This document shows positions 1,271-12,041 of a stretch of 64,000 nt of DNA, in pieces. Source of the DNA: an uncultured Gammaproteobacteria bacterium (GTDB lineage Bacteria > Patescibacteriota > Patescibacteriia > S139-126); assembly GCA_964620905.1 (NCBI GenBank), contig CAZUKA010000001.1, forward strand, positions 90,890-154,889, given 5' to 3'. The translations under genes were made by a program, and so were the position numbers. Below the pieces are notes generated by a model. That model worked only from the letters and a program-made list of their open reading frames with translations, made no database searches and was not told the DNA's origin. Within the stretch, counting starts at the first letter, position 1; every line of letters starts with the position of its first letter.

Positions 1271-2395
1271 ATGAAGCTGGCTTTGGTTCACGATCATTTA
1301 AACCAATTTGGAGGCGCTGAACGCGTGCTTTTAAATATGCAGAAAAATTGGCCAGACAGCCCAATTTATACTTTACTGTATGACGAACAAGCTCTAGGTA
1401 AATGGTTTAAGAATAGTAAAATCCATCAATCATTCATCAGTCGATTGCCCGGCAGCCGCAAAAGATTTAAATGGTATTTACCGTTGATGCCCGCAGCGTT
1501 TGAACAATTTAATTTGTCAGCTTATGATGTTGTTTTATCATCAGTTTCAGGTCTTGCAAAAAGTGTGATTTTAAGTCCGGAAGCTTTGCATATTTGTTAT
1601 TGCCATACTCCAACCAGATATTTATGGTCAGATACCCATACTTATACCGAAGAATTGCATCAGCCTTGGCTGGTAAAAAAATTACTACCACCTTTACTTA
1701 CTTATTTACGAATGTGTGATTACAATGCAGCACAACGGGTTGATGTCTGGTTGGCCAATTCTCATTTTGTGGCGCGACGCATAAAAAAATATTATCGTCG
1801 GGAAGCACAGGTATTGTATCCACCAGTAGAAGTTGATCAGTTTAGTATCAGCCCGGAAGTTGATAATTATTATGTGATTGTTTCTCGGTTGCGTCCTTAT
1901 AAGCGAGTGGATTTGGCGGTACGAGCTTTCAATAAGCTCGGTTTACATTTAAAAATTATTGGCGTTGGTGAAGAGACTGAACGTTTGCAAAAAATGGCAC
2001 GGTCAAATATCGAATTCATCGGGGCAGTTTCTGATGAGATGAGAAATAAATATTTAGCTCGAGCTCGGGCTTTTATATTTCCCCAAGAAGAAGATTTTGG
2101 TATCACTGCGGTTGAAGCCAACGCTTGCGGTCGGCCGGTGATTGCTTATCGTTCAGGTGGAGCAGTAGAAAGTATCAGCGAAGGAAAAACCGGAGTATTT
2201 TTTGCTGAACAATCTTGGGAAGCATTAGCCGATGCGGTTATCCGTTTCGATCACAAACAATTTGATCCACAAGTTATTCGTGACCACGCTTTACAATTTT
2301 CTTCAGTAAATTTCCGTCAACGACTCCAAGAAATTGTTAGTCAAGAGTGGGAAAAATTTTATAATTATACTCGCGGCTATGAAAATCGGAGTTGA
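1271..2395 (+). CDS. Glycosyltransferase, GT4 family (GT-B fold)
   Basis: E-x7-E region 'EEDFGITAVEANACGRPVIAYRSGG'. Starts 4 nt after the upstream stop. Confidence 0.75.
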   Translation: MKLALVHDHLNQFGGAERVLLNMQKNWPDSPIYTLLYDEQALGKWFKNSKIHQSFISRLPGSRKRFKWYLPLMPAAFEQFNLSAYDVVLSSVSGLAKSVILSPEALHICYCHTPTRYLWSDTHTYTEELHQPWLVKKLLPPLLTYLRMCDYNAAQRVDVWLANSHFVARRIKKYYRREAQVLYPPVEVDQFSISPEVDNYYVIVSRLRPYKRVDLAVRAFNKLGLHLKIIGVGEETERLQKMARSNIEFIGAVSDEMRNKYLARARAFIFPQEEDFGITAVEANACGRPVIAYRSGGAVESISEGKTGVFFAEQSWEALADAVIRFDHKQFDPQVIRDHALQFSSVNFRQRLQEIVSQEWEKFYNYTRGYENRS

Positions 2396-3503
2396 TGCGA
2401 GATGTTTATTGGCTGAAAATTATTCGGGGGTTAGTATTTATACTTGGCAGCTTATCAGGGCCATGGTTGCTAAACTGCCTACTGATCAATTTATTTTGCA
2501 GGCAAATAGTTTTAAACCAGTAAATGTTTGCTCTAAAATTGACGAGATTAAAGTTAAAAAATCTATCACTAGGTATCCCAATAAACTCTTAAATTTATCT
2601 ATGGTTTTTTGGCAATTTCCGCAACTTGATCGTTGGTTGGATGGGGTTGATGTTTATTGGGTACCGGGGAATAATTTTATTAGTTTATCCGATCAGGTAG
2701 TCAAAGTTTATACCTGTCACGATTTATCTTGGTTAGTTTGGCCAGAATTTTATTCAGTGCGGGGAAAATGCTGGCATCGTGCTTTACAGTTGGAAAAAAA
2801 GTATACTACTGCTCAAAAAATTATTGCTGTCAGCGAATGTACAAAAATTGATATTTTAAATTTTTTTCCCCAAGTCAAACCAGACAATGTTGTTGTGGTA
2901 CCGTCAGGAATTTCTTATCCCCAGTTAACTCGAGAGCAAAAAGTTGAGGTTCAACGTGAGCTTTCTTTACCGGATCGTTTTCTGCTTTATGTCGGTAATA
3001 TTGAACCTCGAAAAAATGTTTTAGGTATAATTGAAGCTTTTAAAAAATTACAAACCAAACATCCTGATCTTTATTTAGTTTTGGCTGGGGGTAGTGGTTG
3101 GCACAAAAGATATAGCCAACAAGTACAAAAAGCCATTAATACCAATAACCGCATAATATATCTTGGCTATGTTAATGAAGAACAGAAATGGGTATTATAT
3201 AGTCTAGCTCAGGTTTTTTTGTGGCCGTCTTTTTATGAAGGATTTGGTTTTCCGCCACTAGAAGCTATGAGTCAGGGTTGCCCGGTAGTTGTCAGTCAGA
3301 GTGCGTCATTGCCAGAAGTGGTTGCGGCTGCTGGGATATTGATCAATCCTTTTGACCTTCAAGATTTAGTTTTGGCAGTTGATTCTTTACTGACCAATGA
3401 ATCCTGGCGACAACAATTAATTGCCCGTGGTTATCAAAGGGTCAAAGAGTTTAGCTGGGAAAAATCAGCTCAACTAACTAGCAAAGTATTTCAATCAATA
3501 TGA
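2379..3503 (+). CDS. Glycosyltransferase, GT4 family
   Basis: Internal start 'MKIGVDARCL' at 2379 matches the N-terminus of the next paralog ('MKIGIDARLY'). 'FYEGFGFPPLEAMSQGCPVVVSQSASLPEV'. Overlaps the upstream gene by 17 nt. Confidence 0.75.
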   Translation: MKIGVDARCLLAENYSGVSIYTWQLIRAMVAKLPTDQFILQANSFKPVNVCSKIDEIKVKKSITRYPNKLLNLSMVFWQFPQLDRWLDGVDVYWVPGNNFISLSDQVVKVYTCHDLSWLVWPEFYSVRGKCWHRALQLEKKYTTAQKIIAVSECTKIDILNFFPQVKPDNVVVVPSGISYPQLTREQKVEVQRELSLPDRFLLYVGNIEPRKNVLGIIEAFKKLQTKHPDLYLVLAGGSGWHKRYSQQVQKAINTNNRIIYLGYVNEEQKWVLYSLAQVFLWPSFYEGFGFPPLEAMSQGCPVVVSQSASLPEVVAAAGILINPFDLQDLVLAVDSLLTNESWRQQLIARGYQRVKEFSWEKSAQLTSKVFQSI

Positions 3504-4615
3504 AAATCGGTATTGACGCGCGTCTTTACGGCGCTCAAAAAAATAGAGGTTTGGGTCGTTACCAAGAGAAATTATTAACTCATTTACAGACTATTGATAC
3601 TGTTAATGACTACGTAATTTTTTTGCAACCGGATAATTTTGCTGATTTAAAAATAACTGCAAATAATTTTCATAAAGTCAAAGTTAACATACCTTGGTAT
3701 ACTTGGCGTGAACAAACTGTTTGGCCCTGGATTTTGCGTAGTTATAAATTCGATTTGTTTCATTTTCCTCATTTTAATGTGCCGTTTTTTTATCGTCGGG
3801 CGTATGTTGTGACTATTCATGATTTAATCATGACGCATTATACAGATGATCGCAGTACGACTAAAAATAAAATAATTTATCAAATTAAAATTAAAATTGC
3901 TCGTCACTTGGTAAGATTCGCTGCCCGTCGGGCTGAAGCAATATTTTGTCCCTCGGAATTTACCAAACAGGATATTGTACAAAAATTAAAAATCGTACCT
4001 GATAAATGCGTTGTCACCTATGAAGCTGTAGATAAAATGAATTTTTCATCGTCAGGTAATAATTTTGTTTCGCGACCTTATTTTTTGTATGTGGGTGCTG
4101 CTTATCCTCACAAAAATTTAGAAACAATGATCAATGGTTTTTTGGAATTCAATCAGACAAAAAAATATGATTTAGTTTTGGTAGGTCGACATGATTATTT
4201 TTATAAAAAATTGAAGGAAAAAAATAAAAATCAGCCGGAAATAATATTTTTGGGAGAAGTGTCTGATAACCGATTGGCAATACTTTATCAACACGCGCAG
4301 GGCTTTATTTTCCCGTCTTTAGTAGAGGGATTTGGATTACCTCCTTTGGAAGCTATGAGTCAGGGTTGTGTGGTGATTGCTTCCCGGGCCAGTTGTTTGC
4401 CGGAAGTTTTAGGGGAGGCAGTTTTATATTTTTCCCCAGATAATTCTAGTCAATTGGCTGATTGTTTAAATCAATTGCAGTCTGACCAAAATCTACGAGC
4501 TAAATTATTATCGCTTGGTTTTCAGCAAACTGCTAAATATAGTTGGTCCCGGATGGCAGAACAAACTAAGTTAGTTTTTGATGAAATTTTATTAAAAGTA
4601 AAAAATGTTGTATAA
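3500..4615 (+). CDS. Glycosyltransferase, GT4 family (tandem paralog of the previous gene)
   Basis: 'FPSLVEGFGLPPLEAMSQGCVVIASRASCLPEV'. ATGA start/stop overlap with the upstream gene. Confidence 0.75.
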   Translation: MKIGIDARLYGAQKNRGLGRYQEKLLTHLQTIDTVNDYVIFLQPDNFADLKITANNFHKVKVNIPWYTWREQTVWPWILRSYKFDLFHFPHFNVPFFYRRAYVVTIHDLIMTHYTDDRSTTKNKIIYQIKIKIARHLVRFAARRAEAIFCPSEFTKQDIVQKLKIVPDKCVVTYEAVDKMNFSSSGNNFVSRPYFLYVGAAYPHKNLETMINGFLEFNQTKKYDLVLVGRHDYFYKKLKEKNKNQPEIIFLGEVSDNRLAILYQHAQGFIFPSLVEGFGLPPLEAMSQGCVVIASRASCLPEVLGEAVLYFSPDNSSQLADCLNQLQSDQNLRAKLLSLGFQQTAKYSWSRMAEQTKLVFDEILLKVKNVV

Positions 4616-4639
4616 TTTGTCTAGTAGTCAAACTGTTTC

Positions 4640-7498
4640 ATGAAAAAAAGCTCGACCAAAAAAATAAAACCAGCGGTTAAATTGGTAGTCAAAAATACAA
4701 AGACAACAAAAAAAGTAAAGGCCAACCAAATACCGTCGAGACGAAAAGCAAAAATTTCCCGCCGTCAGTCAGGCACTAGACGGTTACTTAAAAATACTGG
4801 TTTTTTAGTTAAATCCAAACCAACCAAAGTAAAAAAAGTTTTGTCAAAATTATCTCGTTTAGAAGCTGATAGTTTGGCTTTATTTAATGATGATCATGTA
4901 ACCGTTTTTAAAGATTTACAAAAAAATAATTTTGACCAAAAACTAAAATTAGATTCAGCTGCAGATATTGTTAAATCTACCAGCAGTACAACCGAGATAG
5001 CTGGACAAAATGAGTTGATTGTTGATACACAACCAAATGAAATAGGAGCCAAAATTTTATCTGTGCGTCAGCCAGCTCAAAAAATTTCTTCTCCCCACGT
5101 GGTTGATTTAAAGACCAGAGTAGTTTATGAGGACAATAATTATCAGACCGTTGCTCCTCTGACCGCTGCTACTTGGGAAGAAAGAATTTACGCTTGGGAT
5201 AAGAAAATGCAAAATATCAAAACTAACTTTATTACTTCAGATTTGCGTCAACAACAGATTTATAAATCAAATCAAAATAAAAAAGTTGGTTTCTTTTCTA
5301 GGATGATTCGGCGTTTTAGTGGTTGGTTGAGTGCCGGATATTTTTCAATGGTTAATTCTTTTTCCAACTGGGGGGAGACCCAAACAGAAAAAATTTTACA
5401 AACTGCCGCCACTGCTGATACTGATGATTTTGTTGATCAAGTACGACCAGTAAAAAAACGTTTATCACTTTGGCCGCAGGAGCTAGCCGTATCAATGCGT
5501 CTATTTATCATTTTGGCAGTTATTTTAGTTTTACCTTTTCAAGTTTATAATTTTTATTCTGATGTAAAGACACAACAGGAAATGGTTTTGGGAGCTTCTT
5601 CAACAGTTTATAATGATTTTCAGGCAGGTTTCCAAGCCTTTGAAAATTTAGATTTCAGCCAAGCCAGTGATCGGTTTATATCAGCTCAACTTAACTTGCG
5701 CCAAGTTAACGATTGGGTGCAAAAATATCCTTCGTTTTTGTTTATGCTTGCCAAATTTATACCAGGTGCTGGGGGTGAGGTATCAAGTGGTTTAAATTTG
5801 ATGGCCGCGGGTGACAAGATGGCTCAATTGGGAGTGATGCTATCTGATTTATTTACTGATTTACAAGCCAATAGTGGTGATAATTTAGCTGCGCTACAAT
5901 CATTGGAGTCAGGCTTAAATCAAGCAGCGGTTATAATGCAAGAGATTGAACTGATTTTACAAAAAATTGATTTAACTAAATTGCCAGCCAATTATCAGGA
6001 ACAATTTAGTCAATTGAATGAGATTTTACCTATTGCCCGGCAGGTTTTACAGAATGCTAGCTTAGCCAGTGGTTTTAGTGCTGACTTTTTGGGTCGAGAA
6101 CAACCCATGCGTTATTTGTTGGTTTTTCAGAATAGTAATGAATTGAGACCAACAGGAGGTTTTATAGGTTCAATTGCTGAGGTAGATATTAAAGATGCCC
6201 GAGTGCAAAATTTTTATTTACCTCCCGGAGGTGTTTATGATTTACAAGGTAATCTAGAAGTTTTGTTAGCTGCGCCTGAACCGTTGCGTTTATTGAATGC
6301 CAACTGGCAGTTGCAGGATGCCAATTGGTTTTTTGACTGGCCCACTTCAGCAAAAAAAATTATGTGGTTTTACGAAAAGTCGGGTGGTCCGACAGTAGAT
6401 GGAGTAATAGCAGTCAACTCGCAGCTCTTACCAAAGTTATTGCAACTTACTGGTCCAATATATTTAGCGGAGTTTGATCAAATTTTAACGGCTGAGAACG
6501 TTATAGACCAGTTGCAGTATGAGGTAGAAATAAACTATGACCGGTCATTAAACCAACCCAAAAAAATAATTTCCCAACTCATGCCGATTTTACTTGATCG
6601 TTTACAAAAATTGCCGCCGACTGATTTTTTCAGTTTGTTTTCAGTTGTACATAATTCTTTGCAAGCCAAAGAAATTCAATTGTATCATACCAATAGTATG
6701 TTGCAGAAAAAAATTGATACTTTTGGTTTTGCTGGTCAAATTCAACCCACAAATAGAGACTATCTAGCTGTTGTTGATACCAATATCGGTGGTGGTAAAA
6801 CTGACCAAGTGATCGGCAGTCAAGTCTTACTGACTAGCCAAATCGGTCCGCTAGGGGATGTAGTGAATACTCTAAAAATAATCAAACGTCACGATGGTGA
6901 TCCCACTGATCAATTTACCGGTCAAATGTACCGAGATTATCTTCGGATTTATGTGCCACAAGGTAGTCGTTTGCTTTCGGCTAAAGGTTTTACTCCTCCC
7001 GCTCCAACTGAGTATAATCAACCAGCCTCTGGTTTTCAACGAGATGATTATCTTGCTCAGGTAGAAAATAATGAGCGTTTTGATTTAACAACTGGCACCC
7101 GAATTACCGATGAATATGATAAAACCGTATTCGGCAATTGGCTAACACTTAACCCGGGTGAACTAGTAGAAATTGAAATAGTTTATGCTTTGCCAAAAAA
7201 TATTACTTTTAAAAAACAAAATGATGGTAACTTTATTGTTGGCTTAATTGACCAGTTATTGTCTAAATTGAATTTGTCGTTTAGTGCTGAACGCGAAGTG
7301 GCTATGCATACTTTATTTTTACAAAAACAGTCTGGCCAACCACCTTACAATTTTTCGCAGGAAATTATCTTTCCTAGCTCTTGGGAAGTACAGACCAGTG
7401 AACTACTGAAAAATACTACTGCCCAAAGAGACAATCGAGTGTATTATCAAAACCTGATCAAAGCTGATTCTTTGTGGGGATTAATTTTTATCCGTTGA
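4640..7498 (+). CDS. Large membrane-anchored protein with a lysine-rich N-terminal tail; DUF4012-like (assignment recalled from the 'ELRPTGGFIGS' motif, needs checking)
   Basis: 952 aa. First ~75 aa very K/R-rich. Single TM near aa 285 ('LFIILAVILVLPFQVY'). Conserved block 'LLVFQNSNELRPTGGFIGSIAEVDIKDARVQNFYLPPGGVYDLQGN'. Confidence 0.5.
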   Translation: MKKSSTKKIKPAVKLVVKNTKTTKKVKANQIPSRRKAKISRRQSGTRRLLKNTGFLVKSKPTKVKKVLSKLSRLEADSLALFNDDHVTVFKDLQKNNFDQKLKLDSAADIVKSTSSTTEIAGQNELIVDTQPNEIGAKILSVRQPAQKISSPHVVDLKTRVVYEDNNYQTVAPLTAATWEERIYAWDKKMQNIKTNFITSDLRQQQIYKSNQNKKVGFFSRMIRRFSGWLSAGYFSMVNSFSNWGETQTEKILQTAATADTDDFVDQVRPVKKRLSLWPQELAVSMRLFIILAVILVLPFQVYNFYSDVKTQQEMVLGASSTVYNDFQAGFQAFENLDFSQASDRFISAQLNLRQVNDWVQKYPSFLFMLAKFIPGAGGEVSSGLNLMAAGDKMAQLGVMLSDLFTDLQANSGDNLAALQSLESGLNQAAVIMQEIELILQKIDLTKLPANYQEQFSQLNEILPIARQVLQNASLASGFSADFLGREQPMRYLLVFQNSNELRPTGGFIGSIAEVDIKDARVQNFYLPPGGVYDLQGNLEVLLAAPEPLRLLNANWQLQDANWFFDWPTSAKKIMWFYEKSGGPTVDGVIAVNSQLLPKLLQLTGPIYLAEFDQILTAENVIDQLQYEVEINYDRSLNQPKKIISQLMPILLDRLQKLPPTDFFSLFSVVHNSLQAKEIQLYHTNSMLQKKIDTFGFAGQIQPTNRDYLAVVDTNIGGGKTDQVIGSQVLLTSQIGPLGDVVNTLKIIKRHDGDPTDQFTGQMYRDYLRIYVPQGSRLLSAKGFTPPAPTEYNQPASGFQRDDYLAQVENNERFDLTTGTRITDEYDKTVFGNWLTLNPGELVEIEIVYALPKNITFKKQNDGNFIVGLIDQLLSKLNLSFSAEREVAMHTLFLQKQSGQPPYNFSQEIIFPSSWEVQTSELLKNTTAQRDNRVYYQNLIKADSLWGLIFIR

Positions 7499-7556
7499 TT
7501 GAGATTTATTTTATTTTTTAATTTAGCTAATATTAGCCAAATTTTTTAATTGGGTA

Positions 7557-7585
7557 TTGACAAAAATTTTTTTTGGGTGTATAAT
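7557..7585 (+). promoter_or_regulatory. Consensus sigma70-type promoter (TTGACA-17 nt-TATAAT)
   Basis: ttgaca at 7557-7562, 17-nt spacer, tataat at 7580-7585. Lies in a 1-kb ORF-free region. Confidence 0.55.
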
Positions 7586-7591
7586 GATTTA

Positions 7592-7658
7592 TTAATAAAT
7601 TGGAGAGAGAAAATAAGTGGATTTTATATCTCTCCAAGTTCAAGGGAGAGTTTTTTAA
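7592..7658 (+). ncRNA. Candidate small RNA or transcription-attenuator leader: two mutually exclusive hairpins, the second followed by a U-tract
   Basis: Stem tggagaga (7601-7608) / tctctcca (7629-7636). Alternative stem ctctcc (7631-7636) / ggagag (7646-7651) followed by tttttt (7652-7657). Both use the tctctcc strand. Confidence 0.35.
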
Positions 7659-8116
7659 AAATTAAAGGAAGCATGAATTAGGAGGGAAAATTTGGTACTT
7701 ACCAAGTTTATGAGTAAATTTCGTTAGCCCTTTATCCGGTATTCATACTGGGTACGTGCTAAGGAATTTATTCGTTTGACATCCCGCGAGAGCGGGATCA
7801 CTCAAACATTTCCCTCGGAATTTATGTTTTCTTTGTTGGGAGCGGTTATTTGGGGAGAGAGTGACTTGCTCGGCACAAAATATTTTTTTCTGGCCGTCTG
7901 CAGGCTCGCTCCCAAATAACTTTTCCCAAATATTCTTTTCAGTTCTGGGCGTGAATATGCTTTTGCATAGCTCATGCCTTGAACTGAGGAGAATAGCCAG
8001 GTACAATACAATAAAACCAATAAAATCCTGGCAAAAAATTTAAAATAAAATACTGATGACGAATGCGGCGCCCAAATTTTTAGTCAAATTAAATGACTAC
8101 AAAGCTGACATTCGCC

Positions 8117-8229
8117 CTCAGTAATCTGGGTGCTTGGTTCGAGGCTAGTCGGTTGTCCCGCATTTGCGGGAAAATCTCTCTCCTCACAGCCGACCATGCA
8201 ATTCTAGAACCAAGCCCCAGATTAGTGAG
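8117..8229 (+). repeat. 113-nt imperfect palindrome (about 22-bp closing stem) enclosing nested hairpins and a CU-rich single strand
   Basis: Left arm ctcagtaatctgggtgcttggttc (8117-8140) vs reverse complement of gaaccaagccccagattagtgag (8207-8229): one mismatch and one bulge. Inner hairpin tcccgc-attt-gcggga (8156-8171). 'ctctctcctca' at 8177-8187. Confidence 0.5.
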
Positions 8230-8261
8230 TAATTTATATAACTTAAATTTAAGGAGTAAAG

Positions 8262-8414
8262 TTGGAATCATTAAATAGACCCGGAAGATTTTTTTATATA
8301 CTTTTTATTTCAACTATTGCTGTTATAATTTGGGGTTATCCCATTTTAATTTTGATTTTATTATTACTTACAGATGCTAAAGAAGTAAAAAGAAGTAAAA
8401 AAATTAAAAAATAA
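8262..8414 (+). CDS. Putative 51-aa single-TM membrane peptide (TTG start)
   Basis: RBS aaggag (8251-8256) 5 nt before TTG. Translation 'MESLNRPGRFFYILFISTIAVIIWGYPILILILLLLTDAKEVKRSKKIKK*'. Intrinsic terminator immediately downstream. Absent from the ORF track, which lists ATG starts of 60 aa or more. Confidence 0.3.
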   Translation: MESLNRPGRFFYILFISTIAVIIWGYPILILILLLLTDAKEVKRSKKIKK

Positions 8415-8424
8415 ATGATTTATA

Positions 8425-8451
8425 AAACTACTTGAAAAAGTAGTTTTTTTA
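8425..8451 (+). terminator. Rho-independent terminator
   Basis: aaactactt-gaaa-aagtagttt followed by tttt. Confidence 0.6.
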
Positions 8452-8491
8452 TCTTTAAAACTTTTAATTTTTATGTTAAAATATTTACATA

Positions 8492-10090
8492 ATGCTAGAA
8501 AAAATTTGGTTTAAATTGAATAATACCACAACCGGCGGGGCAATCTTGATTGCCTTTTTTTCTGTATTTGCCAAAATTATTGGATTATTTAGAGATCGAT
8601 TATTGGCCGCAAATTTTTCAGGAAGTAATATTGATATTTTGGATGTGTATTATGCCGCGTTTAAATTGCCGGATTTAGTTTTTAATACTTTGGTATTGGG
8701 AGCACTGGCTTCTGCTTTTATTCCCGTGTTTGTAAAATATTTACAAAAAAATAAGGACGAGGCCAACCAAATTGCCAATTCACTTCTCAATTTATTATTG
8801 CTGGTTGTGGGTGTATTGACAGTGGTATTTATAGTTTTTGCTCCTTGGTTTACTCATCTAGTTGTACCGGGTTTTAGTGGTGATAAATTTGAGCTAACCG
8901 TCAGATTTACTCGAATTATGTTTTTGGCTATTTTATTTTTTACGGTTTCCAATGTTCTCTCGGGAATTTTAAATTCTTATAAAAAGTTTTTATCTTTTTC
9001 TTTAGGGCCAATTTTTTATAATTTTGGAATTATTCTGGGTATTTTATTTTTTACTAAATTTCTGGGCCCAGAGGGTCTGGCGTGGGGTGTGGTTTTTGGT
9101 GCTTTGCTGCATTTATTGATTCAGTTGCCAGAAACATTTACAACGGGTTGGCGTTATCGATTTGATTTTTTCTTTAAACATCAAGCGGTGAGACGCATAA
9201 TCACTCTGATGATACCAAGAACATTTGGTTTGGCGGTGGCACAAGTCAATCAAGTAGTAACGGTGATCATTGCTTCTACTTTAACCGCTGGATCAGTCGC
9301 ATATTTTAATTTGGCCAATAATTTACAGTCTTTCCCGATTTCTGTTTTTGGTGTGTCAATTGCTATCGCCTGTTTTCCTGCCTTTTCCCAAGCTTTTGCT
9401 GAAAAAAATCAAGAAAAATTTATGGTCAGTTTTAGTGTCAATTTCAGGCGTATTTTGTACTTGATTGTGCCTTTTTCAGTTTTTCTACTTTTACTGCGAG
9501 CACAAATTGTGCGGTTGGTTTTGGGAACCGGCAATTTTACCTGGACTGATACTATCCAAACCGCCCAAACTCTGGGTTTTTTTTCCTTGTCTTTATTTGC
9601 CCAAAGTTTAATCCCACTTTTATCCAGATCCTTTTATGCTTTTGAAGATACCAAGACGCCGGTGATAGTTAGTATATTTTCTTTTTTAGTAAATATTATC
9701 GGAGCAATTGTTTTGGGACAAAAGTTTGGTATTTTTGGCGTGGCCGTAGCTTTTTCTCTTGCCTCGATTTTAAATTTTATAGCCTTACTTACTATTTTAA
9801 GGTTTAAAGTAGGTTATTTGGATGATAAAAAACTGGCTTGGTCTGCCTTGCAAATAAGTTTTTTAAGTTTACTTTGCGGTTTATTGGGTTATCTGGTGAT
9901 GCATGTCGTTGCGCCACTGGTAAATATGCGTACTTTTTGGGGAATTTTTATTCAAACTATTAGCACCTTGTTTATTGGTGGCGGGGCTTATATAATACTG
10001 TCAGTTTTATTTAGATTTGAAGAAGTTGAGATTATTGGTAAATTTTTTGGAAGATATTTGAAGATTTTTCAGAAGAATAATGGCAACTAA
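8492..10090 (+). CDS. murJ: Lipid II flippase MurJ (MviN)
   Basis: N-terminus 'GGAILIAFFSVFAKIIGLFRDRLLAANFSGSNIDILDVYYAAFKLPDLVFNTLVLGALASAFIPVF' is characteristic of MviN/MurJ. About 14 TM segments. Confidence 0.85.
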   Translation: MLEKIWFKLNNTTTGGAILIAFFSVFAKIIGLFRDRLLAANFSGSNIDILDVYYAAFKLPDLVFNTLVLGALASAFIPVFVKYLQKNKDEANQIANSLLNLLLLVVGVLTVVFIVFAPWFTHLVVPGFSGDKFELTVRFTRIMFLAILFFTVSNVLSGILNSYKKFLSFSLGPIFYNFGIILGILFFTKFLGPEGLAWGVVFGALLHLLIQLPETFTTGWRYRFDFFFKHQAVRRIITLMIPRTFGLAVAQVNQVVTVIIASTLTAGSVAYFNLANNLQSFPISVFGVSIAIACFPAFSQAFAEKNQEKFMVSFSVNFRRILYLIVPFSVFLLLLRAQIVRLVLGTGNFTWTDTIQTAQTLGFFSLSLFAQSLIPLLSRSFYAFEDTKTPVIVSIFSFLVNIIGAIVLGQKFGIFGVAVAFSLASILNFIALLTILRFKVGYLDDKKLAWSALQISFLSLLCGLLGYLVMHVVAPLVNMRTFWGIFIQTISTLFIGGGAYIILSVLFRFEEVEIIGKFFGRYLKIFQKNNGN

Positions 10091-10094
10091 GAAA

Positions 10095-10160
10095 TTAACT
10101 AATAACTAATAACTAATTACTAATGACTAATGAATTTATTAATTAGTTATTAGTAGATTG
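10095..10160 (+). repeat. Low-complexity tandem and inverted 'ACTAAT' hexamer repeats downstream of murJ
   Basis: taactaataactaataactaattactaatgactaatg, then its inverse attagttattagtag. Confidence 0.4.
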
Positions 10161-10262
10161 TGTCATTGATTAGTAATTAATAATTATAGATTATTATACA
10201 TATTGACCACTTGTTTAAACCCGAGTCAGCAGCGAGGCAAGAGTTAAAAATTATTATTTTTT

Positions 10263-12041
10263 ATGGATAGTAAACAAATTCGCAATTTTTGTATCATCGC
10301 CCATATTGACCATGGTAAATCAACTTTGGCTGATCGGTTGTTGGAAATTACCCACACGGTTGATAAAAGAAAAATGAAAGATCAACTTCTTGATCAAATG
10401 GATTTGGAAAGAGAGCGCGGAATTACTATCAAACTAACACCAGTTAGAATGCAGTGGCAGGGAGTAGAGCTTAATCTGATCGATACGCCGGGGCATGTTG
10501 ATTTTGCGTATGAAGTTTCTCGCAGTTTAGCGGCTGTGGAAGGGGCGTTATTGTTGGTTGATGCTACTCAAGGAATTGAAGCTCAAACTTTAGCAAATTT
10601 ATATTTGGCACAAAAACAAAATTTAGTGGTAATCCCAATAATCAATAAAATTGATTTACCAGCGGCGGATGTAAATACAGTTACGGAAGATTTAGTTAAA
10701 TTGTTAAAATGTTCTACCACCGATATTTTGTTGGCTTCAGGTAAAACTGGACAAGGGGTAGAGGGTATATTGAATACAATTATTGAACGGATCCCGCCGC
10801 CCCAGGGACAGGTTGATCTACCTACTCAAGCTTTAGTGTTTGATTCTTTTTATGATGAATATCGAGGAGTGGTGTCCTATGTCAGGTTGAAAAATGGTCA
10901 AATAAACAACAACGATAAAATAAAATTTCTTTCCAATCGCACTTTAACCGAAGCGCTGGAGGTTGGTTGTTTTTCTCCAACTATGACTAAGTTAGATAAA
11001 CTTTCAGCAGGCGAAATTGGTTATATAGTAACTGGTTTAAAACAAGTGGGTGAAGCTAAAATTGGCGATACCATAACCAACCACCTAAGTAGCCAAATCA
11101 CAGCGCTAGCTGGTTATGAAGAAATGAAACCAATGGTATATGCTGGTATTTATCCCAAAGAAGGTGATGCTTTTGCTGAGTTGCGCGAAGCGATGGAAAA
11201 ATTAAAATTAAACGACGCGGCTTTACTCTATGAACCAGAATCATCTTTAGCTTTGGGTTTTGGTTTTCGGTGTGGTTTTTTGGGGTTGTTGCATTTGGAG
11301 ATATTTAAAGAACGAATTAGACGAGAATATGAACTAGAAATAATAGTTACTACACCATCGGTGGCTTATCAAATAGTAGACAAAAAAGGTCAGAGTAAAA
11401 TTATTCATTCCCCAGAAGAATTTCCTTCGCAAGAAAAGCTGGAAAAAGTTTTTGAACCGATTATGCGGGTAGAAGTTTTAACACCTAAACAGTATGTCGG
11501 CAATGTAATGAAATTGGCCAGTGATAAGCGCGGTCAATATGTTGATACGACTTATTTGGATGAACAGAAGGCCATTTTGCATTATTTTTTACCACTTACC
11601 TCGCTGTTGGTTGATTTTTATGATACACTAAAAAGTATCAGTAGTGGTTATGCTAGTTTAAGCTATGATTTTTTTGATTATCAAGTCTGTGAATTGGTTA
11701 AACTTGATATTTTAGTAGCCGAAGAAAAGGTTGAGGCTTTATCGACCTTAGTCTATGAGGATCAAGCTTATCAGATAGCTAGACAAATTGTTAAGTCATT
11801 GAAAGAAGTTTTGCCTCGGCAGATGTTTGAGGTAAAAATCCAGGCTACGATTGGCGGTAAAGTGATTGCCAGCGAAAGATTGTCAGCACTGAGAAAAGAT
11901 GTCACAGCCAAACTTTATGGTGGTGATGTAACAAGAAAAAGGAAGTTATTGGAAAAACAGAAAAAAGGTAAAAAGAAAATGCAGCGCCGTGGTCGAGTAG
12001 AAATTCCCTCCGAAGCCTTTATTGCTTTATTGAAAAGATGA
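10263..12041 (+). CDS. lepA: Elongation factor 4 (LepA)
   Basis: 'IRNFCIIAHIDHGKSTLADRLLE', 'DTPGHVDF', 'NKIDL' G-motifs, and the LepA-specific C-terminus. Confidence 0.95.
   Translation: MDSKQIRNFCIIAHIDHGKSTLADRLLEITHTVDKRKMKDQLLDQMDLERERGITIKLTPVRMQWQGVELNLIDTPGHVDFAYEVSRSLAAVEGALLLVDATQGIEAQTLANLYLAQKQNLVVIPIINKIDLPAADVNTVTEDLVKLLKCSTTDILLASGKTGQGVEGILNTIIERIPPPQGQVDLPTQALVFDSFYDEYRGVVSYVRLKNGQINNNDKIKFLSNRTLTEALEVGCFSPTMTKLDKLSAGEIGYIVTGLKQVGEAKIGDTITNHLSSQITALAGYEEMKPMVYAGIYPKEGDAFAELREAMEKLKLNDAALLYEPESSLALGFGFRCGFLGLLHLEIFKERIRREYELEIIVTTPSVAYQIVDKKGQSKIIHSPEEFPSQEKLEKVFEPIMRVEVLTPKQYVGNVMKLASDKRGQYVDTTYLDEQKAILHYFLPLTSLLVDFYDTLKSISSGYASLSYDFFDYQVCELVKLDILVAEEKVEALSTLVYEDQAYQIARQIVKSLKEVLPRQMFEVKIQATIGGKVIASERLSALRKDVTAKLYGGDVTRKRKLLEKQKKGKKKMQRRGRVEIPSEAFIALLKR

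Follow-up and report, generated by a model that had tools for sequence, protein, structure and literature searches.

A structured RNA between the DUF4012 gene and murJ

The DNA analysed here, called the window throughout, is a stretch of 64,000 nucleotides (nt) from contig CAZUKA010000001.1 of assembly GCA_964620905.1 (positions 90,890 to 154,889, forward strand). It holds a gene-dense Patescibacteria segment with the gene order GT4, GT4, DUF4012, gap, MurJ and LepA, in which MurJ has relatives named Parcubacteria, Komeilibacteria or Patescibacteria. A preliminary description had singled out a consensus promoter at the start of the gap, followed by two competing hairpins and a U tract, and had proposed either an attenuator or a terminated small RNA (sRNA) of ~65 nt. 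This pattern is the tip of a much larger feature. The gap almost certainly encodes a large structured non-coding RNA (ncRNA) of ~640 nt, which runs from 7592 to ~8230 on the plus strand and has the promoter-proximal unit as its leader. The existence and extent of this new RNA family are near certain.

Homologous contigs were fetched via MurJ proteins 89%, 86%, 80%, 72%, 68% and 57% identical to that of the window. The RNA sits between the DUF4012 gene and murJ, and the gap and blocks of its sequence are kept in loci whose MurJ is 89% to ~57% identical. The homologue set comprises 17 distinct Patescibacteria loci, designated here by L numbers, of which 16 are full-length copies. The long forms (n=10) are the window, L002, L005, L026, L019, L007/L021, L020, L009 and L012; L014, L017 and L024/L030 are short forms, and L031 and L033 are further variants.

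The stretch 7592-8260 folds at -266.8 kcal/mol, against -161 ± 8 kcal/mol for shuffled sequences (z = -13.7), and the opposite strand reaches only -220.8 kcal/mol, which is 46 kcal/mol worse. Its GC content is 42-55%, compared with 13-30% in the flanks. RNAalifold, applied to an alignment of the 10 long-form sequences (pairwise identity 54-89%), predicted 148 pairs. In a separate count on the same 10 sequences, comprising 146 pairs, 94.7% were paired versus 85.0% in shuffles, and 76 pairs showed changes on both sides, a number reached by none of 500 shuffles (28.5 in shuffles), against 15-24 in slid controls. Many conserved G-U pairs favour the plus strand, as do the energy difference between the strands and the scores of the following model. 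A covariance model of the 3' domain (R1) scored the window at 134 bits forward and 36 reverse; it recovered every family member and no controls, with forward scores ~100 bits above reverse ones. The conserved covarying structure begins at 7665, 8 nt past the U run of the leader, and continues to ~8230, and no second promoter for the RNA body was found in the window or in any homologue.

The gap had been described as 1 kb free of open reading frames (ORFs). This holds insofar as none of its ORFs keeps its frame or length in the homologues. Neither four mechanical ORFs of the gap nor a 50-amino-acid (aa) ORF matched Pfam above threshold; the last of these, at 8262-8414, does carry a Shine-Dalgarno sequence.

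Anatomy of the RNA

The features of the locus are as follows (bp, base pairs).

7526..7537, strand not assigned: palindrome GCTAATATTAGC, centred ~-60.5 from the predicted start; candidate transcription-factor operator
7557..7585, plus strand: sigma-70-type promoter TTGACA-17-TATAAT, with a predicted start at ~7592
7592-7656, plus strand: leader with three elements, namely GGAGAGAG, CUCUCC, and GGAGAG with a run of six U (U6)
7600..7637, plus strand: leader hairpin 1:2, antiterminator-like, in which GGAGAGAG (7602-7609) pairs with CUCUCC (7630-7635)
7630..7656, plus strand: leader hairpin 2:3, terminator-like, CUCUCC (7630-7635) with GGAGAG (7645-7650), a 9-nt loop and U6 (7651-7656)
7665..7834, plus strand: domain 1, three-way branched, with a ~26-bp closing helix containing GGAGGG/CCCUC (inverted repeat I2; RNAalifold)
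7836..7929, plus strand: domain 2, a long hairpin with invariant GGGGAGAGAGUGA (7853-7865) paired with CUCGCUCCC (7905-7913)
7931..7995, plus strand: domain 3, a hairpin with GGGCGUG/CAUGCC and GAGGAGAA (helix 10; 28 pairs, 18 with both-side changes)
7996..8055, plus strand: domain 4, hairpin GCCAGG/CCUGGC (7996-8032) and an A-rich linker (minimum-energy fold)
8060..8114, plus strand: domain 5, hairpin CGAAUGCGG/...CAUUCG (helix 11; 8 pairs, 4 with both-side changes)
8117..8230, plus strand: 3' signature domain, with P1-P2, a loop-helix, P3, the P4 hairpin and unpaired AAAUCUCUCUCCUCA (8172-8186)
8262..8414, plus strand: 50-aa hydrophobic ORF with a TTG start and AAGGAG at 8251-8256; predicted to be co-transcribed, optional cargo
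8424..8450, plus strand: intrinsic terminator with a 10-bp stem, GAAA loop and U run (-9.4 kcal/mol, z = -3.7), at which the transcript is predicted to end

Downstream of the leader, the body is predicted to fold into six domains, with the single-stranded AAAUCUCUCUCCUCA loop on display in the 3' domain. For domain 1 alone, RNAalifold gave 60 pairs, 29 of them with both-side changes, including the 26-bp closing helix from 7665. Domain 2 (helix 9) has 22 pairs, of which 9, in the outer part, changed on both sides; its inner nine pairs are uninformative, as seven are invariant, one shows G-C to G-U and one has an unpaired cell. Domain 4 lies outside the RNAalifold consensus, and in the alignment its relatives show GCAAGG/CCUUGC, that is, a C-G to A-U exchange.

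Within domain 1, GGAGG lies 6 nt ahead of a TTG that opens an 11-codon frame (7681-7727). A start codon at the same spacing is also present in L002 and L020 and absent in L007. A leader peptide at GGAGG and TTG (7681-7694) was considered and rejected, given that L007 has no start codon and that the region is a covarying helix; we treat this GGAGG as a Shine-Dalgarno-like structural element and not as part of a peptide gene. The motif CUGAUGA (8053-8059) was likewise considered as part of a hammerhead or C/D-box and dropped, since it is lost in L009 and L012.

The 3' domain has an identical layout in the 17 distinct homologues folded singly. Its loop-helix is formed by GAGGCUAG (8141-8148) and CCAUGCAAU (8194-8202), and the CUCUCUCC loop is unpaired in every fold; invariant, unpaired AAAAUCUCUCUCCUC is, together with the GGAGAGAG tracts, the signature of the family. 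Because MAFFT placed the P2 and P4 helices of the short forms wrongly, and the model-fitted alignment (A7) contained reverse-strand self-matches, the P3 and loop pairs were tallied by anchor position. At P3 positions, G-C is swapped with U-A or A-U between subgroups, and the loop pair R7:Y2 occurs as A-U, G-C or A.C. The signature can be written as P1-P2, a GANGYURG/CYAYRCAWU loop-helix, P3, the P4 hairpin and unpaired AAAAWCUCUCUCCUC, which the window fits at 8117-8230. It is accompanied by a near-consensus TTGACA promoter, 350-770 nt ahead of the loop, and by a purine tract; the promoter-to-loop distance is 500-770 nt in long forms and 350-455 nt in short forms. In the latter, P1 is AAAAAGCUGCG.../...CGCAGCUUUUU and the 3' domain is itself an intrinsic terminator. 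The promoter, the 3' domain, a UUGGAGGG/CCCUCC helix and one or more GGAG(G)GAGAG tracts are common to all members.

Known RNA families and distribution

The Rfam search proposed in the preliminary description identified no known family in the gap. At the gathering threshold of Rfam 15, the whole window yielded three tRNAs only, none of them in the gap, and eight homologous loci gave no match. RNase P, transfer-messenger RNA (tmRNA), signal recognition particle (SRP) RNA, 6S, OLE, ROOL, GOLLD, HEARO, raiA, group I/II introns and riboswitches were all absent at that threshold. With the limit relaxed to E ≤ 10, the interval 7400-8600 retrieved chance-level microRNA and long ncRNA matches only. 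ARAGORN detected neither a tRNA nor a tmRNA in the gap, and full-text literature searches turned up no account of this RNA.

Some large bacterial RNAs nevertheless resemble it. OLE RNA (RF01071) is similar in size (~600 nt), in its many hairpins and invariant patches, in being single-copy, chromosomal and vertically inherited in one bacterial lineage, and in lying near membrane or envelope genes, with a small membrane-protein gene following in some genomes. The differences are that no OLE model match was obtained at E ≤ 10, that the hosts are Patescibacteria/Minisyncoccota and not Bacillota, and that oapA, oapB and oapC are missing among the neighbours. Moreover, whereas OLE RNA is described as part of a larger operon, the RNA described here has its own promoter and terminator, and its small ORF is not conserved. 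OLE RNA and OapA form a membrane-associated ribonucleoprotein (PMC9723947, PMC12265935). ROOL and GOLLD are also large, ornate, multi-hairpin bacterial RNAs (PMC12286853), from which the present family differs in the lack of an Rfam match, of a phage or viral link and of tRNA-gene linkage, and in its fixed chromosomal site and long invariant tracts. With none of these three RNAs, all of which have been studied by cryo-EM, does it share its host range or partner genes.

A pattern derived from the most conserved block was used to scan genomes and metagenomes. Among 185,579 species genomes there were five matches, all true, one of them in Candidatus Paceibacter (Minisyncoccota). The metagenome scan retrieved 10 contigs, seven true and three due to chance (L022, L025 and L028), and the scan of viral contigs retrieved none; a blastn search against 50,697 phage records also gave no match. 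The CYATRCAWT part of the pattern proved too strict: L031 (CCAUGCCAU) and L033 (UCACGCAAU) were missed, so the 12 true scan matches underestimate the family. These two loci, found by synteny alone, both carry the invariant loop and have variant loop sequences that escape the pattern.

Each locus carries the RNA once, always at the same syntenic position. In L032, the DUF4012 gene and murJ are separated by 80 nt and the RNA is lacking. No reverse transcriptase or transposase gene was found among the flanking genes scanned at 2334-12041, which encode glycosyltransferases, DUF4012, MurJ and LepA. The gap has no notable direct repeats and is not a TIGR- or CRISPR-like array.

Some records deserve separate mention. 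Those of L018 and L019, in which the RNA occurs with DUF4012-murJ synteny, are titled 'uncultured Gammaproteobacteria bacterium', and the L018 region is identical to Patescibacteria L014 and L015; the titles look like binning or taxonomy errors. In L012, positions 4600-5035 (minus strand), upstream of the RNA promoter and between the RNA and the next gene, contain at least three copies of a ~100-nt repeat (GTCGGAATGACAAGG…CATCCCGAGCG.AGTCGAGGGATCTCTTAG), which looks like a small dispersed or tandem element. L029, a metagenome contig, has a genuine 3' domain, but the stretch ahead of it (1955-2259, minus strand) is taken up by short repeats in tandem (GATGATTGATGATCGATGA..., CTTCTAGTCTTCTAATCTTC...) where the body and promoter would be expected, and this may be a disrupted or rearranged copy.

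Promoter and upstream palindrome

The promoter is as first described: TTGACA-17-TATAAT at 7557-7585 on the plus strand, with 12 of 12 consensus matches. A perfect TTGACA-N16-18-TATAAT occurs only here in the 64-kb window (expected 0.07), and TTGACA with TATAAT, TATACT or TATATT is kept in all 16 full-length homologues.

Upstream lies the palindrome, whose sequence GCTAANNTTAGC occurs once in the 64 kb (expected 0.10). The form [G/C/T]CTAA-NN-TTAGC was found upstream of the RNA promoter in 11 of the 16 RNA loci, among them the window, L002, L005, L026, L019, L009, L017, L031, L020 and L033, and it was not found in loci without the RNA. Its centre is 25.5 nt from the start of the -35 element in seven loci, 26.5 nt in L031, 36.5 nt in L020 and 46.5 nt in L033. 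These spacings, corresponding to ~-60.5, -71.5 and -81.5, amount to helical phasing of the kind expected of a transcription-factor site. The palindrome also lies at the centre of a weak hairpin with a U run behind it (7520-7547), at only -4.3 kcal/mol, and it has this second role in several loci. In L009, L007, L019 and L020, the upstream gene has a GC-rich terminator of its own, so the palindrome is unnecessary for termination.

We consider that a factor binding the phased palindrome near -60 probably modulates the RNA promoter. The arrangement is reminiscent of class I activator promoters, with a palindrome upstream of the -35 element at distances that differ by ~11 and ~21 bp between lineages. 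The CRP sites of class I activator-dependent promoters are centred at -61.5, -71.5 and -82.5. The present promoter differs in that its -35 and -10 elements already match the consensus, and an activator seems unnecessary; a repressor site or an architectural element is equally possible.

Two exclusive hairpins in the leader

Both leader hairpins that had been proposed are present. The upstream stem, with its 20-nt loop, pairs 7601-7608 with 7629-7636, and the minimum-energy fold lengthens it to 7600-7608/7629-7637 (UUGGAGAGA/UCUCUCCAA) and adds an inner helix. This hairpin 1:2 has an energy of -13.2 kcal/mol (z = -3.9), not equalled in any of 200 shuffles. The second stem and its U run also exist, albeit one base lower than the coordinates first given; hairpin 2:3 has an energy of -8.0 kcal/mol (z = -2.0), equalled in 8 of 200 shuffles. 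As proposed, the two stems compete for one strand: both use CUCUCC at 7630-7635 and hence cannot coexist. Taken by itself, the 69-nt leader unit has a folding z of only -1.4; the evidence that it exceeds chance is its retention, with the promoter, in the homologues.

The preliminary description had called for a test of conservation and covariation, and the outcome is conservation of the leader elements, with one compensatory change. The three-element arrangement followed by U6-7 is kept in 8 of the 10 long-form copies, which represent three or four distinct lineages, and the U6-7 run is retained in all eight copies that have element 1 (GGAGAGAG, numbered here as 7602-7609). Across homologues, hairpin 1:2 ranges from -13 to -18 kcal/mol and hairpin 2:3 from -4 to -8 kcal/mol, with terminator-like stems of 4-6 bp. 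In L007/L021, the innermost pair of hairpin 2:3 shows a double change from C-G to U-A, next to one mismatch. Comparison of the leaders showed that the module is absent from L009 and all short forms, and that L012 has neither element 1 nor the U run while keeping hairpin 2:3 (6/6 pairs). The loop sequences of the leader hairpins are not conserved in the long-form alignment.

The energetics point to a two-state leader. Hairpin 1:2 is ~5 kcal/mol more stable, and the terminator helix has a probability below 0.003 in the unperturbed leader. Blocking of GGAGAGAG raises this probability to 0.78-0.93 in five copies; L020 reaches 0.34 and L007 0.015. GGAGAGAG occurs three times in the 64 kb (expected 0.4), at 7602 and 7854 in the sense orientation and at 8176 as its complement, all within the RNA. 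Paired with the leader tract, the CUCUCUCC loop gives a duplex of -16.6 kcal/mol, stronger than the leader hairpin at -13.2 kcal/mol, so displacement in trans is energetically possible.

Downstream ORF, terminator and murJ

In the window, the RNA is followed by the 50-aa ORF, with AAGGAG 5 nt ahead of its TTG start. Small hydrophobic ORFs (50-68 aa) with a Shine-Dalgarno sequence follow the RNA only in the window, L002 (3672-3878), L007, L019 and L021, that is, in 5 of the 10 long-form loci and in none of the short-form loci. Judged by eye, they apparently have two membrane helices. Those of the window and L021 are related (RPGR...YPILILI), whereas that of L007 is unrelated, although the L007 and L021 RNAs are 94% identical; the small ORF thus looks like a swappable cassette. 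In L005, L009, L020, L012 and L026, a terminator equivalent to that at 8424-8450 is located directly after the 3' domain.

A promoter-like TTTAAA-17-TAAAAT with a TG extension (8454-8482) is found ahead of the murJ ATG at 8492. Given that this site ends at 8482 and that murJ has no Shine-Dalgarno sequence, its mRNA may be leaderless or nearly so.

Interpretation of the leader

The label of attenuator fits the leader in part. A hairpin with a U run and a helix that excludes it are both there. On the other side, no sensor was found, the terminator-like stem has little stability (-4 to -8 kcal/mol) and a single compensatory change in its favour, and L009, L012 and all short forms do without the module. 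Rfam revealed no aptamer or leader; as a sensor, the only candidate is the RNA's invariant CUCUCUCC loop, to which GGAGAGAG is complementary. Compared with terminator/antiterminator attenuators (riboswitches, T-boxes, PyrR/TRAP and ribosomal-protein leaders), the leader shares a promoter-proximal position, one strand used in two exclusive helices, a U run after the downstream helix and a thermodynamic switch hinging on free element 1. It differs in that the target of control would be an ncRNA and not an mRNA, in lacking, by Rfam search, an aptamer, a leader peptide, a tRNA-binding fold and a known protein-binding fold, in reading through by default, in having a loop of its own body as candidate effector, and in its unusually weak terminator stems.

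As a whole, the promoter and hairpins are best explained as the front end of an independently transcribed, structured ncRNA with a leader that would work as an attenuator with read-through by default, an explanation that we regard as probable. Element 1, made first, would capture element 2, and this capture would keep the weak 2:3 hairpin and its U run from stopping the polymerase, so that the full RNA is made. If GGAGAGAG were occupied, 2:3 would form and transcription would stop at the U run. Because the body lacks a separate promoter, any such termination must be partial or conditional; and as the terminator-like helix accounts for less than 0.3% of leader molecules at equilibrium, the default product should be the long RNA. 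The best candidate for the occupant would be the complementary CUCUCUCC loop of a finished, unengaged RNA, acting in trans, a form of self-sensing that we rate as improbable. Alternatively, the occupant might be a factor with a further binding site at the internal GGGGAGAGAG tract. In both cases, copy-number feedback would result. An oligonucleotide of sequence AAAAUCUCUCUCCUCA is named here for probing the leader switch. On the specific point that the leader acts as an attenuator, we are tentative, and we place it somewhat short of probable.

A number of observations weigh against this explanation. The stems of hairpin 2:3 are of low stability, and the window hairpin, with its loop of 9 nt, fails a standard terminator scan; with element 1 blocked, the terminator helix forms poorly in L007 (0.015) and L020 (0.34). 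The leader elements are conserved and not covarying, with the single compensatory change and the single mismatch of L007/L021, and the RNA can do without the module, which L009, L012 and the short forms lack. The L012 copy, with hairpin 2:3 and no U run, would fit a hairpin of purely structural role equally well. As neither the purine tract nor the pyrimidine loop varies, covariation lends no support to the putative long-range pairing between them. Neither a protein partner nor a target was found, and the neighbourhood of DUF4012, murJ and lepA is the same in L032, which has no RNA, so the context says little on function. The start, the termination and the ends of the RNA are all predicted.

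Part of this evidence would be accommodated by a leader that is purely structural and never terminates transcription. Hairpin 2:3 would then be permanent, GGAGAGAG would pair with the CUCUCUCC loop as an end-joining pseudoknot, the U run would be a linker or would pair with the A-rich 8036-8044, and 1:2 would be transient or unpopulated. L012, which keeps 2:3 while lacking the U run and element 1, is in line with this, as are the RNAalifold consensus, which takes helix 2:3 and not 1:2, the full-length minimum-energy fold, in which GAGUUUUUU pairs with AAAAAAUUU after domain 4, the invariance and complementarity of GGAGAGAG and CUCUCUCC (-16.6 kcal/mol), and the weakness of the terminator stems. 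However, the U6-7 run is kept in 8 of 8 copies with element 1 and lost in the one hairpin copy without it, which is the pattern of a terminator with its antiterminator. In addition, the U/A pairing is of low complexity and was not picked up as conserved, and the short forms, which have no 5' tract, keep the loop and another GGAG(G)GAGAGAG tract, so the 5' copy is not a universal partner. We consider the structural leader unlikely, albeit with appreciable weight. Much less can be said for the RNA being a long cis-regulatory 5' untranslated region, either of the small ORF at 8262-8414, as with a type I toxin, or of murJ. The absence of a terminator between RNA and ORF in the window, L002, L007, L019 and L021, the ORF's AAGGAG 5 nt before TTG, and the fact that in most loci the RNA precedes murJ and is read in the same direction would agree with such a role, which is nevertheless very unlikely: the ORF is missing from L005, L026, L020, L009, L012 and the short forms, where a terminator follows the RNA; the ORFs of L007 and L021 are unrelated despite their 94% identical RNAs; in L012 the RNA is convergent with murJ; and in the window the terminator (8424-8450) and the promoter-like site (8454-8482) precede murJ.

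The ~65-nt stand-alone sRNA of the preliminary description, with the downstream sequence as a separate entity, does have the promoter, hairpin and U6 run that it would need. It is hardly credible all the same, since the terminator helix is disfavoured (equilibrium probability below 0.003) and only 8 nt separate the U run from a conserved structured body of 570 nt, for which no homologue has a separate promoter; furthermore, the hairpin loop sequences are not conserved, and half of the family lacks the 65-nt module but keeps promoter and body. Non-functional DNA, be it a gene in decay, the remnant of a mobile element or a repeat, would account for the mechanical ORFs of 60-98 codons on both strands, and is effectively refuted by the extensive compensatory substitutions. 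The gap also has no conserved ORF, no Pfam match, no notable repeats, and no phage or viral matches, and the element is a fixed single copy.

Significance

To our knowledge, bacterial ncRNAs longer than ~400 nt with dense conserved structure are few, and nearly all that have been solved are ribozymes or ribonucleoprotein cores. Judging by how large the RNA is, by its tracts that stay single-stranded and invariant, and by the genes around it, our guess is that the body could be a ribonucleoprotein scaffold or a regulator tied to the envelope neighbourhood. A bolder proposal, which we think has a small chance of being right, is that the RNA measures its own free pool: the invariant CUCUCUCCUC loop would kiss the nascent GGAGAGAG and flip the leader to the terminator form, without a protein sensor, making this a new class of large, ornate ncRNA in ultra-small Patescibacteria. 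Its GGAGG-like and CCUCC-like tracts would mimic a Shine-Dalgarno/anti-Shine-Dalgarno duplex, and the body might, under the same proposal, act on ribosomes or translation initiation. In a genome that we assume to be ~1 Mb, ~0.1% would be spent on this RNA, together with the one perfect consensus promoter of the window.

The unsolved OLE, ROOL, GOLLD and raiA RNAs are active research targets (PMC12286853, PMC10861870). The host of the RNA described here belongs to the Candidate Phyla Radiation (CPR), or Patescibacteria, whose genomes are minimal and whose RNA biology has hardly been characterised by experiment. The RNA has clear predicted ends, invariant tracts of 8-15 nt that are open to mutation and a leader that can be tested by in vitro transcription. 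It thus offers a concrete handle on RNA function in these bacteria, together with a possible attenuator controlling an ncRNA.

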